Assembly (NCBI GenBank): GCA_963783305.1
Contig: CAWAMW010000002.1
Coordinates: 128,001 to 192,000 of the forward strand
Direction of reading: 5' to 3'
Origin: an uncultured Gemmatimonadales bacterium
GTDB taxonomy: Bacteria; Gemmatimonadota; Gemmatimonadetes; Longimicrobiales; RSA9
DNA: 64,000 bases
The position numbers were made by a program. Shown here piece after piece: positions 33,001-42,000 of this stretch (positions are counted from its first letter, which is position 1; each line of letters begins with the position of its first letter).

Positions 33001-36000
33001 TCATGACTTCTCTTCCCCCGTGGGAGACACACGCTCCCGTACGGGTGTCCTGGTGCACTTGGTCCTGCTGGGATTGGTCGGACCTGCCCCCGTTCCAGGT
33101 GGAACTCGGGGTTCCGGTACTGCGGCGAACATGGCTAGCTGTCGATGGCACCTCCTGTGAAGAAGTGCTTGACCGGTGTCAAACACCTCGTTATCAAGGT
33201 GTAACAGCAGAGGGTCGCTGGTGTCAAACCCACTGCCCCGTATATAGTTTCAGTCCGGCGCGTACTCGCCCGGGCGATGGGAATTTGCCGGATCAGGCCC
33301 CCGCATCCCACTCGCCGGAGAGCGGGTCGACGCCGAGGGCGAGGGCGCGGTCCCTGCGCTCGCGCTCGAGGCGGTCGTGGTCGATGGCGTCGGCCAGTGC
33401 GTGGAGGAACCCCTCGACCTCCGCGGTGTGGCGGCACTGCTCCGCCACTCCCTTCTCTATGCACTCCGCGCAGCCGGCCCTGAGGGCGCGAGAGATGTTG
33501 GCGAGCTCGTCGACGCCGAGCCGTTCCGTTTCCATGCGTACTTTCAGCATGCGTACCTCCTGGCCTGCTGCGAGGGCGGCACCCGGCTCTGTTGGCGGTG
33601 CCCTATCACGGGAGCACCTGCCAGACGGTGTCGAGCACCGTTCCATCCACCCATTTAACGATTGAAACAGGGCGTTGTGACACACGTGCGGGAGCTGGAG
33701 GCCCGCCGACGAGGGCCTCCACTTCCGCTTTCAGGACCGCCATGGGTTTGACGGGTAGAGTGCTGTTGATGGTTGCGCGGAGTAGATCTTCTCGCCGTGG
33801 GTTGATGGCGATCCCGCGCTCCGTAACGACGACATCGATGAGCTCGCCGGGCCCGGTGAGGGTGGTGACCCGATCGACGAGAACGGGAATGCGGTCGCGG
33901 AACGACGGCACGGCGAGGATGGTGCAGCCACTGGAGAGGCAGTTCTGCCAGCCGCCGATCCCGTGGAGCAGCATGCCGTCGGAGTGGGTGACGACGTTGG
34001 CGTTGAAGTCCACGTCCACCTCGGTGGCGCCGAGCACCACGGCGTCGACCATGGAAGCGAAGTTCCCCTTGCCGTGGTAGTTGTAGGAGGTGAAGGGGGA
34101 GGTGGCGATGTGGCGCGGGTCCCCAGCAATGGAGGCTACGCCGGCCAGGTCGAAGGTCTGGCCGTCGAGGATGTAGTCGGTAAGCCCCTCCTGGAGCAGC
34201 TCGACGAGGTATTGCGTGGAGCCGCCGCGGACGAATCGTGCCTTCACGCCCGCTTCCTTCATCATGGCGCGGAGGTAATCGACGAACGCCAGGGCGATGC
34301 CACCGGCGCCGGCCTGGAAGCTGAAGCCGTCGCGCATGATCCCGGCATCCCTGAGGAAGCGGGCGACGTACTCGGCGATGAGGAGCCGGTCGGGGCTCTT
34401 CGTGATCTCGGTGGTCCCGGAAACGATCTTCGACGGGTCGCCAACGGAGTCGACGACGACCACGGCGTCCACGTTGTTTCCCTGGATCTGCCATGGCACG
34501 CACGGGAACGGGACCAGGTTGTCGGTGACCACGATGACGTGGTTGGCGTAGATGGAATCGGCGAGCGCGAAGCCGAGAGAACCGCAGGCGGAGGGGCCGT
34601 GGGAGCCATCGGCGTTGCCGAACGCATCGGCCGTGGGGGCGGCGATGACCGCGATGTCGATCTTCACCTCGCCGTCCTGGATCGCCTGCCACCGGCCGCC
34701 GTGGGACCGGAGCACTCCGAGGCCGGGCATCCCACCGCGGGATGTGAGGTCGCCGAGGGGCCCGTTCATGCTCCCCTCGATGTGGTGGACCACGCCGCTC
34801 TCGATCAGGTCGATGACCGGCGCGTGCACCGCGAACGACGCGCTCGGGAACCACCGCAGCCCTTTCACTCCCATCTCGGCGGCCGCCTGCAGCGCCATGA
34901 GCGCCACGCGGTCTCCGTTCCGAAAATGGTGGTGGGTGGAGATGGTCATGCCGTCGCGGAGCCCCGCTCGCTCGAGCGCGGTGCGCAGGTCCGCGACGCG
35001 CTTGTCGCCGCTGGCCGGGTAGTCCCGCGCGGACCGGATGGGTGGGCCGTGCTTCGATCCCTCGGGTGCGTATTCACCCACGCCCCTGAACGGCACCTGC
35101 TCTTCCCCGTTGACGACCGTCGGGACGTCGCGACCGGCCGCGTTCCGGACGACCTCGCCGGCCGCTGGGCCGTCGAGCCACGGCGCGTTCCGCTCCGCCG
35201 CCACCAGAGCGCTCATTGCGGGCCTCCGTTCCCGAGTCCCATGGCCGCGGCCCGATCCACGAGACGGCGGGCGCGGAGCACGACGGGCGCATCGATCATC
35301 TTGCTGCCGAGGCTCACGACCCCGAGGCCGCGCGCCTCGGCCTCGCGGAAGGCCTCGACGATCCGGGTGGCCTTCTCGAGTTCTTCCGACGTGGGCGCGA
35401 ACGCTTCGTGGATGACCCGGATCTGGCGCGGGTGTACGCACCCCATGCCGGTGAAGCCCAGGGCACGGGCGGCCCGTCCCCAGCGAAGCAGCCCTTCCGC
35501 GTCCTGCACGTCGCCATACACCGAGTCGATCGCCTGGATTCCCGCCGCCCGCGCCGCGTTTACCAGCCGCTGCCGCGCCCACAGCGACTCGCTCCCCTCG
35601 GCGGTCTTCGCGACGCCCAGATCGGCGGTATAGTCCTCGAGCCCGATCGTGAGCGCCACGACACTCGGATCGGCACACGCGATGCCGAACGCGTTCTCCA
35701 CACCCAGCGCGGACTCCAGGATCGGCATGATCCAGATCGGCCGGTCTGGCTGCGCGGCGCCATGGCCCCTGAGCTCACGGATCCGCGCGACCACCGACCG
35801 CACCTGCGCCGCGTCCTCCACCTTGGGCACCAGCACCAGGTCCGGCGCCTCCGGAACGATGGCATCCAGATCCTCGAGGCCGAGCGGCAGCTGGTTGATG
35901 CGAACCATGCGCTCCGAACCGCCGAAATCCACGCAGCGGAGGGCGTTCCGGACCAGCAGTCGCGCCGCGCTCTTGGCGGCCGGGTGGACCGAGTCCTCGA

Positions 36001-39000: not shown

Positions 39001-42000
39001 GGGTCCGGTAAACTCCACCGCCGCGTTCAGCACCTCGCCCTGGTCATACAGGTGGCAGAGGGTGAGGATGAGGTCCTTGCCAGTCACGCCCGCGGGAAGC
39101 TCCCCGTCCAGCCAGACCTGCACCGTCCGCGGGATCTGCCACCAGAACTCGCCCGTGGCCCAGATCGCGGCAGCGTCCGTCCGGACGACCGGGGTCCCCA
39201 GCGCCCCCACAGCCCCGTAGGTGTTGGCGTGCGAGTCGCTCGCCACCGCCAGGCTCCCGGGCAGCGCGAAGCCACGCTCCATCATGATCTGATGGCCGAT
39301 GCCGGTCCCGGCAGGGTGGAACGCCAGGTCGTGCTCACGGCAGAAATCCCGGATCCGGTGGTACTTCTCCAGGTTGTCGGGCTCGTGGTTCTGGATGTCG
39401 TGATCCAGCACCACCACGGGCTGCCGCGGGTCGGCCATGCCCTCCGCCCCCATGGCCTCGAACTTCGCCATGACGGCCGCGGTATTGTCGTGCGTGAGGA
39501 TATGCCGGGGTCGGAGCGTGACCATATCGCCCGGCCGAAGCGGCCGGTCCGGTCCCGCGACCATGTGGCTGCGGGCGATCTTCTCCACTATCGTGGCACC
39601 CATCAATCCTCCCAGGCGGCCTCCGGCCGCGCGCTGCGAAGTTCGGGATCCATCAGGTCAACGGTCCGCGCGGGTCGTTTTCATGAGGTCGCGGACCGAG
39701 TCGAGGCTGTCGAGAGCCCAGACGGCGTCGACCAGGCGCCGCCGGGCGGGCGCGCTCAGAACGGGCTCGGCGAGAGCCGTGAACTTCTCCTCGACCTCGT
39801 CGTCGGACAGTGGGTTCCGAGGGTCGCCCTTGGGGTAGTCGAGCTGCTTCTCCAGCGTCAGGCCATCCGCCGTCTCTATCGTGACGTGCACCCGCTGAAG
39901 CGCCGGGAACAGCGCCTCGATCTCCGGGTCCGCCACCACCTCCACCTTCGGAAGCTGCGCCCGGATCTCCTCGTCCAGGATCCGGTCCGGCTCCAGCTGC
40001 CGTGGCGTCACCTGTCGGTCCACGATGGCCGCCGCAATGACGTAGGGCAGGCTGTGGTCCGCCGTCTCCTTGCTGCGGGGGTCGTACTTGCTGGGGTCCG
40101 CCAGGATGTCGGCGGCCCGGGCGAGGGACCGGATCCGGACCTTGGTGATGCGGGCGGGCGACAGGTCGTGCTCGCGCACCAGCTCGAGAACCGCCGAGAT
40201 CGGTGCGTGCGTCAACGCTTCCGTGGGGAACGCCTTCATCCCGCAGCGCTCGATCCGCCAGCTCTCGCCCAGGCCGTCGGTCAAAACCTCCAGCTTCCAT
40301 TCCGGGCCCATCACATGGACGAGCCCTTCCTTGCCGTCCAGGACATGCTCCGGGCCGGTGTAGCCCTCCCCCGCGAGCAGCGCCGCCAGGACCCCGGACT
40401 GCGTGGCCATGGGATCCGCGGTGTTCTTCATCATGGTGAGCTTGCCCGCCGTGATCGCACCCAGCGTCGCGTGGCGGGAGGCGCTGATCCCGATGGCGTG
40501 CTGGATCCGCGCCGCATCCAGGCCGAGCATCCGACCGGCCACCACGGGCGAGGCGAATGCCGTCAGCGTGGCGTGATGCCAGCCGCGCTCACGGATCCCC
40601 GGGAACGCAGCCTCGCAGAGGCGCATCTCCACCTCGTGTCCAAGCACGATCCCCAGGACGAGCGCGCGGCCGTCCATCCGCCCTCGCTCCGCCATGGCGA
40701 TTGCGGCCGGGATGAGGTCCGACGGATGCGACGGGTCCTGCTGCCAGTAGATGTCGTTGTAGTCCATCACGCGGACCATCAGCGCGTTCGCGAGCGTGGC
40801 CGAGACCACGTCCAGGCCGAGGCCGCTCCCGATCACCGTGCCCGGGCCGGAGCCCGCTACCTCGCTCAGCACCCGCAGCGCGATCCGCACGTCCTCCTGC
40901 CGGTACCCACCCAGCGCACAGCCCAGCGAGTCGAGCAGGTACCGCTTCGCCTCGTGGACCGCGCGCTCGCTCAGCGCCTCGTACTGAAGCCCCGCCGCCC
41001 AGCGCGACAGCGCGCCCGTAACCGTTTCCGTCGCCTCGACCACGGTATTTCCAACCGCACCCGCCATCACCGCCTCCAGGACCGGGTTCACCTGCTACAA
41101 CCTACGAACCCCGCCGCGCGATTTCTGTGGGGCAAGGGCTGAATTACGGATCAGCGCGGCCGCCCGGATAAACCTTACAAGGGCGTGGGGCGGTGGCCGT
41201 TCAGCCCCCCTTGAACGGGAGATATGCCATGAAATCGGCGTGGTGGACGATGATGGCCTCCGTCGAGCGGCTCACCAGCTCGCCCTCGCCGGCGTGCGCG
41301 GCAATGATGTGACAGACCGCATCCGGTACGCCGCACTCCAGCGCCAGGGCGACGCCGGTGAACGGGTGCCGCAGGGCCCGGCCCCGCCGGCTCTGCCGCA
41401 CCTCACCGGCCACTTCCTCGTACTCGAGCAGCTTGCCCACGTCGGCCAGGATGGCCCCCGCTATGACCGTGTCCAGGTCGATGGTCAGCGACCCGCCCAT
41501 GAACTCCAGCATGGCCTCGGCGCCCCGGCGGGCGATGTGCACCACGCACCGCTTGTGCTCCATGAACGTGGCCGGGCAGTCCGGGACGAGGAGGGTGAAC
41601 GGGATCCGCTCCAGGTCCTCGGCCCCGAGGGGGCTGCGCTCCAGCGCCCGCTCCCACGTCCGGGCCACGCATTCCCGAAGCTCCTCACCCTCGATCCACT
41701 CCAGCTCCGGCCACAACCGCTCCACCGCCTGCCGCATCGCTCCACTCCGTTCCCAGTGAGCCGGGGGGTCCCCCGGAATTGGACGTACCCGTGCCGCGGG
41801 TGCGCTGGGCTTCGCACGGAATCCGTAGCATCCGCGGCCTCCGGCGGCAACAGGCACATCCACCGGGTGGGACGACTCCCCTTGATAAAACAGTGGTGAG
41901 GGGCGAACTTTTTAGCCGGTCGACCTGCGGGTACGAAGCCCCAACCCGTTGCTGCCCAACATCTTGGCCAGAGGCTCGATACTTGTACAAGCGCAGGGGC

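Follow-up and report, generated by a model that had tools for sequence, protein, structure and literature searches.

A conserved six-gene operon with a CitD-CitE fusion lacking the prosthetic-group serine, and its possible role in a homocitrate route

Six minus-strand genes in a 64,000-nucleotide stretch of DNA from an uncultured Gemmatimonadales bacterium (the window) form an operon whose members stay linked across many bacteria of soil and sediment and which encodes a citrate lyase-like pair whose carrier domain has lost its attachment serine. Tentatively, with confidence a little short of even, we read this operon as encoding a C7 (homocitrate) route that links 2-oxoadipate with 2-oxoglutarate and an acetyl unit. 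The route would most likely run as a cleavage on free CoA, disposing of 2-oxoadipate from lysine, probably under oxygen limitation. We infer the substrate, stereochemistry and direction of this route from what is observed here, namely gene content, family assignments, residue changes, missing accessory genes and co-occurrence.

Gene content and conservation of the operon

The six ORFs lie where the genome-wide survey's note had placed them, and family searches agreed with the families that it had named. An additional small ORF follows citF.

33293..33550, minus strand: 85-aa ORF directly 3' of citF, perhaps co-transcribed, outside the conserved core
33606..35216, minus strand: CitF-family (family II) CoA/ACP transferase, 536 aa (PF04223, E 7e-130)
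35213..36430, minus strand: CitD-CitE fusion (PF06857 and PF03328)
36427..37641, minus strand: beta-decarboxylating dehydrogenase, homoisocitrate-dehydrogenase (HICDH)-like (best PDB match HICDH 1x0l, E 7.1e-54)
37675..39603, minus strand: one-chain homoaconitase (fungal Lys4-type) family hydratase (TIGR00139, 645 bits against a cut-off of 529.9)
39658..41067, minus strand: MmgE/PrpD-family protein (PF03972 and PF19305)
41201..41737, minus strand: YhaM-like HD-fold protein, 178 aa (TIGR00277, 30.9 bits; no Pfam match)

The junctions are tight, with ATGA overlaps between the dehydrogenase and CitDE genes and between those for CitDE and CitF. The true start of citF is the ATG at 35216, the GTG ORF from 35678 being over-long, and the likely start of prpD is the ATG at 41067 behind GGAGG, within an ORF that opens at 41091. 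Among the best 80 of at least 588 matching stretches, our recount found all six genes in the order HD-PrpD-Acn-DH-DE-F in 54 loci (the survey had counted 52) and the Acn-DH-DE-F block in 67 (66 in the survey), and six loci had the order without PrpD. Of the remaining 20 loci, 16 had less than 2 kb 5' of the first matched gene and 4 had the space yet lacked the upstream genes. No neighbours beyond the six genes were conserved in these 80 loci; homologs of the 85-aa ORF, which matched nothing in Pfam or NCBIfam, occurred in 4 of them (L001, L005, L018 and L073). The operon was carried by 12 of 201 genomes in a sample of the window's phylum and by 22 of 161 in a sample of an acidobacterial order.

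The CitD-CitE fusion, its transferase and the HD-fold protein

Homologs of the alpha (CitF), beta (CitE) and gamma (CitD) subunits of citrate lyase are all present, and all three score under the NCBIfam equivalog cut-offs: CitF reached 473 bits against TIGR01584 (cut-off 501) and the fusion 265 bits against TIGR01588 (cut-off 443). CitF is 39% identical to E. coli CitF and 75-87% identical within its own family, which shows family-wide changes from E. coli in the conserved stretches. The fusion consists of a carrier domain (about residues 7-87) followed by an acyl-CoA lyase barrel; its CitE part is 38% identical to E. coli CitE, and its model (pLDDT 81) matched the folds of the free-CoA lyases malyl-CoA lyase, CLYBL and (S)-citramalyl-CoA lyase.

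The survey had reported Arg at the site of E. coli CitD Ser14, and we see the same: Arg17 of the fusion aligned with Ser14 (profile alignment, probability 98.5), and 0 of 150 representatives had Ser there. It had also given the pattern G-x-x-[VI]-R-S-D for 76 of 80 loci; in our best 80 of at least 588 loci the R-S-D part does occur in 76, but the exact pattern holds in 72 and misses the window's own copy, which reads G-A-S-A-R-S-D. Furthermore, neither family search nor tblastn with the E. coli proteins found CitG, CitC or CitX in the source genome (96% complete), as the survey had stated, and the positive controls for these searches matched in E. coli. CitG was found in 1 of 62 carrier genomes, its sole match being mdcB of a malonate decarboxylase operon, CitX in 0 of 80 (family search), and CitC as one weak partial match in 1 of 5 genomes. 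Both the attachment Ser and the installing enzymes are lost beyond the source genome, which agrees with the earlier proposal of a lyase without the phosphoribosyl-dephospho-CoA arm. We infer that this lyase turns over on free CoA; with the covalent arm so replaced, CitC, CitG and CitX would not be needed. Judged by its sequence, the carrier domain is vestigial; it is always retained, probably as a docking element for CitF, and the Arg that stands in for Ser14 could, speculatively, bind a phosphate of CoA.

The model of the HD-fold protein (pLDDT 92.5) was closest to the fold of YhaM (9h3f; TM 0.70, Z 15.2), with atlas clusters of the HD family. The fold in the survey's term "HD hydrolase" is confirmed in this way, but hydrolase activity is not established because Ala replaces the His of the HD doublet (Ala-Asp in at least 95% of 59 rows); His61, Asp99, His124, His148 and Asp168 are invariant. 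It is very unlikely, in our estimate, that some machinery distinct from CitG/CitX, possibly this HD-fold protein, still modifies the carrier on the Ser adjoining the Arg; this question is independent of the substrate. Such a role would suit a carrier domain that is never lost and an HD-fold protein that has no assigned role and persists in loci that have lost PrpD; a non-canonical HD protein is also known in ACP phosphodiesterase. The Ser in question is kept in 77 of the 79 loci with the site (best 80 of at least 588) and in 137 of 142 aligned representatives. It is not invariant as the survey had held, however: it is Gly in L017 (R-G-D), Ala in L036 (R-A-D), and Gly or Ala in four of the 150 representatives (RAD 2, RGD 2; the other variants are RTD, KTD and PQD, and locus L021 reads K-S-D). 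These members weaken the survey's own objection to its proposal, namely that a group might be attached to this Ser; moreover, E. coli CitD and MdcC both have Gly at this position, and there is no CitG to make the arm.

Substrate and direction of the proposed route

The hydratase passed the TIGR00139 cut-off in 4 of 4 proteins tested (748, 741 and 767 bits in three relatives), its scores lie well above those of the LeuC models, and the aconitase catalytic motifs (DSH, three Cys motifs and SSRE) are conserved. The dehydrogenase has HICDH as its best solved match, as the survey had noted at E 7e-54, and falls under every HICDH equivalog cut-off (264 bits against a cut-off of 540). Of the isocitrate dehydrogenase (IDH) residues Ser113 and Asn115, which we take to contact the gamma-carboxylate, Ser113 is kept and the Asn115 site is Ile in 68 of 69 sequences; the source genome's own two IDHs keep Asn115. 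The coenzyme site is of the NADP type by its residues: K344, Y345, Y391 and R/K395 occur in 69 of 69 and V351 in 68 of 69, and HGSAP is followed by Lys-Tyr in all 69, where Thermus HICDH reads HGSAPDIA (NAD-type Asp-Ile). NADP specificity leaves the direction unfixed. Taken together, the homoaconitase cut-off, the missing Asn115 and the NADP signature point to homocitrate over citrate, and we consider homocitrate the more likely substrate.

The PrpD-family protein scored 95, 82 and 60 bits against the three PrpD equivalogs (cut-offs 950, 575 and 458), and its best solved matches were IDS epimerase and IRG1/CAD (E 5e-38 to 1e-25), with true PrpD at E 2e-15. PrpD was lost at least twice on the tree; of the genomes with the 6 otherwise intact loci that lack it, five were searched and none yielded PrpD. 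Fungal homoaconitases are described, in passages of two papers, as interconverting homoaconitate and homoisocitrate only, the syn elimination being that of methylcitrate dehydratase and impossible for aconitases (PMC3556520, PMC5690661); activity on (R)-homocitrate is reported in one paper for a homoaconitase from Candida (PMC6268379). We propose that the hydratase interconverts cis-homoaconitate and homoisocitrate and that the PrpD-family protein is a candidate (S)-homocitrate/cis-homoaconitate hydro-lyase.

In the proposed cleavage, the NADP-type dehydrogenase would convert 2-oxoadipate to homoisocitrate by reductive carboxylation, the Lys4-type hydratase would form cis-homoaconitate, and the PrpD-family enzyme would hydrate this to (S)-homocitrate, the isomer usable by a CitE-family lyase. 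CitF would then move CoA from acetyl-CoA to homocitrate with release of acetate, and the CitE barrel would split homocitryl-CoA into 2-oxoglutarate and acetyl-CoA, which would prime the next round. The net reaction would be 2-oxoadipate + CO2 + NADPH to 2-oxoglutarate + acetate.

The distribution of other genes bears on this proposal. Carriers are enriched in enzymes that lead from lysine to aminoadipate. One of these, Lat, was found in 10 of 12 carriers and 8 of 189 other genomes in the sample of the window's phylum. An anaerobic-lifestyle control, the Na+-pump decarboxylase beta subunit, was as tightly associated as the lysine enzymes (8 of 12 against 2 of 189); among genomes without this control gene Lat occurred in 3 of 4 carriers against 7 of 187. 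Of 50 other carriers, only 14 had Lat. In the acidobacterial order, PF16653 (lysine-6-dehydrogenase family) was present in 14 of 22 carriers, and so missing in 8, against 7 of 139 others. There hutU was also enriched (22 of 22 against 83 of 139), and among hutU-positive genomes the PF16653 counts were 14 of 22 against 5 of 83. In the window's phylum PF16653 did not separate carriers from other genomes (10 of 12 against 136 of 189, P-value 0.5), and Fisher P-values for such comparisons overstate the association because kin are not independent. The best solved match of the PF16653 protein was 3ABI, described in a passage of PMC10413350 as lysine 6-dehydrogenase. In L047 a gene of this family comes after citF and shares its strand, and in L053 such a gene sits upstream, about 3 kb away; lysine genes neighbour the operon in only 2 of the best 80 of at least 588 loci. 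Glutaryl-CoA dehydrogenase was present in 11 of 11 and 21 of 22 carriers, and the ordinary oxidative route therefore remains. Among five genomes searched per family, carriers had citrate synthase (5 of 5) and the DAP route to lysine (LysA 5 of 5, DapB 4 of 5), LysX and the Lys2-type reductase were over the cut-off in 0 of 5, and a crude pattern for LysW found none; by this gene content, the operon is not for lysine synthesis.

The same C7 chemistry could run forward, from 2-oxoglutarate and an acetyl unit through (S)-homocitrate to 2-oxoadipate and NADPH, with the lyase/transferase pair in place of homocitrate synthase and the product feeding glutaryl-CoA or some biosynthesis. All the substrate evidence for homocitrate applies here too, glutaryl-CoA dehydrogenase is found in 32 of 33 carriers tested, the one HMGL-family gene of the source genome is LeuA-like by inspection, with no second, homocitrate-synthase-like one, and E. 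coli NADP-IDH, with the same coenzyme residues, works oxidatively. We nevertheless regard the forward direction as unlikely: the DAP route to lysine, and not LysX or Lys2, was found in the five carriers searched, the transferase conserves the thioester and offers none of the pull of a hydrolysing synthase towards condensation, and the enriched enzymes are lysine-degrading ones.

That the substrate is citrate, split by a simplified free-CoA citrate lyase during fermentation of citrate or in a reductive branch of the TCA cycle, the kind of reading that PMC3362086 gives for the Ignavibacterium album pair, is improbable in our view, even though CitF and CitE are clear homologs of the E. coli subunits, IDH Ser113 is kept and the enriched beta-subunit family includes the oxaloacetate decarboxylase of citrate fermenters. 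Citrate would need neither PrpD nor homoaconitase, and the source genome already has AcnA and two IDHs; Asn115 is lost, CitE and CitF stay under their equivalog cut-offs and the conserved CitF stretches are changed throughout the family. In addition, an OadA-type HMGL gene was not found in 3 of 5 carriers including the source genome, whose beta subunit sits, by inspection, in a methylmalonyl-CoA-decarboxylase-like cluster, and no conserved transporter turned up near the operon in the best 80 of at least 588 loci. Another asymmetric 2-substituted malate or citrate (citramalate, an alkylmalate, methylcitrate or a longer homocitrate) might instead be used to shorten or lengthen a different 2-oxo acid by one carbon. 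Loss of Asn115 fits LeuB-type substrates too (the entry for an IDH N115L mutant is among the high-ranking matches to this region), the PrpD homolog is distant from PrpD enzymes that have been characterised, the closest folds of the barrel act on malyl- and citramalyl-CoA, and homoaconitase-family enzymes can be broad in substrate range. We give this little likelihood in view of the 645-767 bits against the homoaconitase model, the separate LeuB in the genome and the association with lysine enzymes in two phyla.

If the C7 cleavage is correct, hundreds of genomes annotated with citrate lyase, and for that reason suspected of fermenting citrate or of running the TCA cycle in reverse, would carry a different pathway. 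This would be an electron-accepting, CO2-fixing exit for 2-oxoadipate with as many as three new activities (homocitrate lyase, (S)-homocitrate hydro-lyase and NADP-HICDH), and it would illustrate the way in which an enzyme built on a carrier protein returns to free CoA. More tentative still, and appreciably below an even chance, is that this is a widespread, undescribed CO2-consuming breakdown of lysine/2-oxoadipate, the upper aminoadipate pathway run backwards through the "unnatural" (S)-homocitrate, with the first NADP-linked HICDH, a PrpD-type homocitrate hydro-lyase and a homocitrate lyase that exchanged its covalent cofactor arm for free CoA and has Arg for the attachment Ser. Because the lyase takes two genes and comes without maturation genes, it lends itself readily to expression, and the question is directly testable.

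Comparison with known systems

Citrate lyase CitDEF of E. coli and Klebsiella (EC 4.1.3.6) has homologous alpha, beta and gamma subunits, with the transferase gene directly after the lyase gene. The operon differs in the fusion of gamma to beta, in the Arg at the Ser14 site and the longer loop before it, and in having PrpD, homoaconitase and dehydrogenase genes instead of CitC/G/X and a transporter. The two-gene architecture itself, compared by published description, is that of Ignavibacterium album, where the CitE-CitD fusion IALB_1147 and CitF IALB_1146 were noted in 2012 as an ATP-independent citrate lyase, possibly of a reverse TCA cycle; the passages concerned mention neither a lost Ser, missing accessory genes nor the neighbours ("homoaconitase" and "isocitrate" 0 times each; PMC3362086).

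With the upper alpha-aminoadipate pathway the operon shares the homoaconitase equivalog, HICDH as best solved match and, going by passages of PMC3556520, two hydratases for one isomerisation, but it has a lyase/transferase pair and PrpD instead of homocitrate synthase, an NADP-type site unlike that of Thermus HICDH, and hosts that make lysine by the DAP route. The 2-methylcitrate cycle (PrpC, PrpD, aconitase and PrpB) similarly pairs a PrpD-family enzyme with an aconitase confined to the second half-reaction; our loci, in contrast, lack PrpB and PrpC, their PrpD homolog is far under the cut-offs, and a decarboxylating dehydrogenase follows. Finally, the free-CoA CitE-family lyases that work with CoA transferases (itaconate Ict/Ich/Ccl, CLYBL and malyl-CoA lyase) resemble the operon in barrel fold and in the proposed transferase-then-lyase logic, and the operon stands apart from them in its CitF-type (family II) transferase and in the apparently vestigial carrier domain on its lyase.

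Conservation and surroundings of the operon

The genome-wide survey's note had described a conserved operon of six genes, and our follow-up found that this feature is real and conserved. The whole operon spans 33606-41737 on the minus strand of the window, and ATGA overlaps join its last three genes, which encode the dehydrogenase, the CitD-CitE fusion and CitF.

Genes of the operon in the window (position, strand, product)
41201-41737, minus, HD-fold protein
39658-41067, minus, MmgE/PrpD-family protein
37675-39603, minus, one-chain aconitase-family protein
36427-37641, minus, beta-decarboxylating dehydrogenase
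35213-36430, minus, CitD-CitE fusion
33606-35216, minus, CitF

Among the best 80 of at least 588 related stretches returned by a genome scan, 54 loci carried the six genes in this order, six carried five genes without PrpD, and 67 carried the block from the aconitase to CitF. At 16 of the remaining loci, less than 2 kb of sequence preceded the first matched gene, whereas the other four had space upstream yet lacked the upstream genes; in five of five cases (these four and one short-contig case) the aconitase was found elsewhere in the genome. Where the operon is broken up, its genes remain co-inherited. At three loci consisting of the fusion and CitF only (L101, L102 and L103), a homoaconitase, 53-56% identical, stands alone elsewhere in the genome; for L099 and L100 it lies elsewhere beside PrpD. 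No conserved neighbour beyond the six genes was seen at the 80 loci, and we found for the operon no promoter or terminator above chance and, within it, no Rfam element.

The lineages involved, as annotated, include Gemmatimonadota, Acidobacteriota, Bacteroidetes, Latescibacteria, Eisenbacteria, Binatia and others. Distribution is patchy: in the window's phylum 12 of 201 genomes carry the operon (two more weak matches there were ordinary CitE), and in an acidobacterial order 22 of 161. Four unpublished genomes (G097, G182, G157 and G057) enter the phylum tallies and seven (G259, G328, G277, G271, G273, G269 and G281) the acidobacterial ones; all are non-carriers that contribute to denominators only, and publication of counts resting on them requires the depositors' permission. 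Because most genomes are incomplete assemblies, "not found" does not equal absence. In one genome (G315) the CitD-CitE fusion is present twice, as full copies on contigs C3 and C7 that are 59% and 61% identical to that of the window.

Other features of the window (position, strand, description)
28279-32985, minus, a 1057-aa TonB-receptor-like ORF and a 507-aa lipoprotein-like ORF (by inspection)
41949-48263, plus, a divergently oriented run (relative to the operon) of about eight ORFs whose N-termini carry prepilin-type motifs (by inspection)
9010-10605 and 16652-18757, minus, two AMP-binding genes (acyl-CoA synthetase family), 15-23 kb from the operon
56370-56443, plus, one tRNA, the window's only Rfam match

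The TonB-receptor-like and lipoprotein-like ORFs resemble a SusC/SusD pair, and the run of prepilin-motif ORFs looks like a pseudopilin or minor pilin cluster. Within the window there was no evidence linking the two AMP-binding genes to the operon. By inspection, eight loci (L003, L008, L011, L013, L041, L054, L055 and L059) have a thiolase-like gene upstream of the HD gene and divergent from the operon, accompanied in seven of them by an HMG-CoA-synthase-like gene, also divergent; these neighbours probably reflect synteny common to one lineage.

The HD protein is about 75% identical across phyla and is retained where PrpD is lost. A sequence search against solved structures returned nothing significant for it; its predicted model resembles the HD domain of YhaM, with Ala instead of the doublet His, and cyanamide hydratase shares the fold. 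The protein may be a CoA-related phosphohydrolase, a metal-dependent hydratase or non-catalytic.

The carrier domain and its accessory genes

In a profile alignment of 44 carrier domains, the Arg of the family motif A-G-x-x-G-x-D-[VI]-R-S-D fell on Ser14 of E. coli CitD, whose own A-G-T-L-E-S-G-D is three residues shorter. The malonate decarboxylase carrier MdcC of L089 has a Ser as far from the conserved Asp as is this site, and the phosphoribosyl-dephospho-CoA arm is described as sitting on Ser25 of MdcC (PMC5534430). The motif of the window itself is a degenerate version. It had been claimed that G-x-x-[VI]-R-S-D was shared by 76 of the 80 loci; this count is right for R-S-D, and the exact pattern was present in 72. 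The four loci that lack R-S-D have R-G-D (L017), R-A-D (L036) and K-S-D (L021) or, in one case, are cut by a contig end, so that the Ser previously called invariant is replaced by Gly and by Ala. Of 1262 representatives, the best 150 comprised 128 with RSD, 4 with KSD, 2 each with RAD, RGD and QSD and five single variants, with one sequence partly and eight wholly unaligned, and none of these 150 had Ser at the attachment site. By these counts, what the family conserves is the basic residue, and the adjacent Ser is replaceable.

The survey's failure to find the accessory genes was borne out: CitG was detected in one of 62 carrier genomes (50 of the 80 loci and 12 phylum genomes), within a malonate decarboxylase operon; CitX turned up in none of 80; and CitC was not found in the window's genome, one of five genomes giving one weak partial match. 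The canonical prosthetic arm has very probably been lost, and the lyase would turn over on free CoA. Citrate-lyase subunits in isolation use CoA esters, and the closest folds of the CitE barrel are free-CoA lyases. Apo malonate decarboxylase subunits are reported to accept malonyl-CoA (PMC5534430). Looking for short carrier proteins that stand alone yielded two matches, one labelled partial. Most of the 150 representatives are short, and a few of 88-96 aa may be stand-alone.

Substrate of the lyase and hydratases

All four aconitases tested passed the homoaconitase equivalog; a frameshift suspected at the C-terminus was not supported. The dehydrogenase had Thermus homoisocitrate dehydrogenase (HICDH) as its best match and passed no equivalog, and a fragment search ranked isocitrate dehydrogenases (IDHs) first. 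Compared with E. coli IDH, it retains all catalytic residues and Ser113, and Ile replaces Asn115 in 68 of 69 rows; among the NADP residues, Lys344, Tyr345, Tyr391 and Arg/Lys395 are kept in all 69 rows and Val351 in 68. We take its S-P-I-V stretch to resemble fungal HICDH. The window's genome has its own AcnA, LeuB and two IDHs, both of which keep Asn115. By inspection, an aconitase-family ORF at C2:753305-755974 of this genome seemingly has a LeuD-like stretch before a LeuC-like one, the reverse of the operon enzyme.

CitE bears the name citrate (pro-3S)-lyase, and its relatives, by the names of family and fold matches, act on (S)-citramalyl-CoA; with 2-oxoglutarate, the lyase would thus handle (S)-homocitrate. 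The isomer of the fungal pathway is given as (R)-homocitrate (PMC6268379). Fungal homoaconitases are described as interconverting homoaconitate and homoisocitrate only, and the methylcitrate cycle as requiring PrpD because aconitases are unable to perform syn elimination on the acyl-derived arm (PMC3556520; PMC5690661). On these facts, a Si-type lyase, PrpD and a half-reaction aconitase would be the expected set for an asymmetric citrate analogue, and would be superfluous for citrate. Counting against this argument, PrpD is missing in the six intact loci mentioned; on the tree it was lost at least twice, a search without positive control found it elsewhere in 0 of 5 PrpD-less genomes, and a KM is given for Candida homoaconitase with (R)-homocitrate (PMC6268379). 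No compensating aconitase change is common to all six PrpD-less loci. The PrpD homolog is distant from true PrpD.

Possible lysine link, direction and known systems

Within the window's phylum, 10 of 12 carriers have lysine 6-aminotransferase (Lat), against 8 of 189 non-carriers; of 50 further carriers reached via the loci, it was found in 14, none of the 14 acidobacterial as annotated. In the acidobacterial order, PF16653, a lysine-6-dehydrogenase-related family, was present in 14/22 carriers versus 7/139 non-carriers; the member tested best matched the lysine 6-dehydrogenase 3ABI. In the window's phylum this family is non-discriminating (146/201). Lysine 6-dehydrogenase-like genes flank the operon at 2 of 80 loci. 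The lysine association is reduced by controls: the beta subunit of the Na+-pump decarboxylase (8/12 versus 2/189) follows the operon no less closely than Lat does, and hutU, which is uninformative in the window's phylum because it is near-universal there (176/201), occurred in 22/22 carriers versus 83/139 non-carriers of the acidobacterial order. Stratified counts still favour the link, with Lat in 3/4 carriers versus 7/187 non-carriers among genomes without the beta subunit, and PF16653 in 14/22 versus 5/83 among hutU-positive genomes, numbers that are small and include non-independent kin.

Genes for ornithine aminotransferase occur close to the operon at L014:8299-9579 and L079:12781-13992 (over the TIGR01885 cut-off) and, by similarity, at L034 and L016. 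On contig C15 of the window's genome (381922-384475 and 403402-404760), a saccharopine-dehydrogenase-like gene adjoins a member of the alanine dehydrogenase family, and the two may be a split LKR/SDH pair. Lat lies 19 kb away from them, and a methylmalonyl-CoA-decarboxylase-like cluster occupies the interval.

A role in lysine biosynthesis was ruled out by searches of five carriers each, in which the diaminopimelate route was represented by LysA in 5/5 and DapB in 4/5, and neither LysX nor Lys2-type reductases exceeded the cut-off in any; I. album, which has the fusion, is described as entirely without lysine biosynthesis (PMC3362086). Replacement of citrate synthase is likewise ruled out, since five of five carriers have that enzyme, as is replacement of glutaryl-CoA dehydrogenase, present in 32/33 carriers and 27/38 non-carriers; the operon would therefore supplement the oxidative route. 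Read most simply, the operon would give amino-acid fermenters an alternative, reductive way out for 2-oxoadipate. By our own estimate the chemistry is near equilibrium, so the route may also run forward. A homocitrate-type route tied to 2-oxoadipate, with C7 chemistry in either direction, appears somewhat better than an even prospect; its operation in the cleavage direction is more tentative, falling a little short of even.

A literature search without most subscription journals, including classic citrate-lyase biochemistry, turned up no publication describing the operon, loss of the Ser or a homocitrate route run in reverse; the one relevant report is a 2012 note of the I. album fusion and CitF, interpreted there as citrate lyase (PMC3362086). 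The operon stands outside the canonical citrate lyase system, though it would work like one, and it is most likely made of known kinds of parts assembled as an undescribed pathway.
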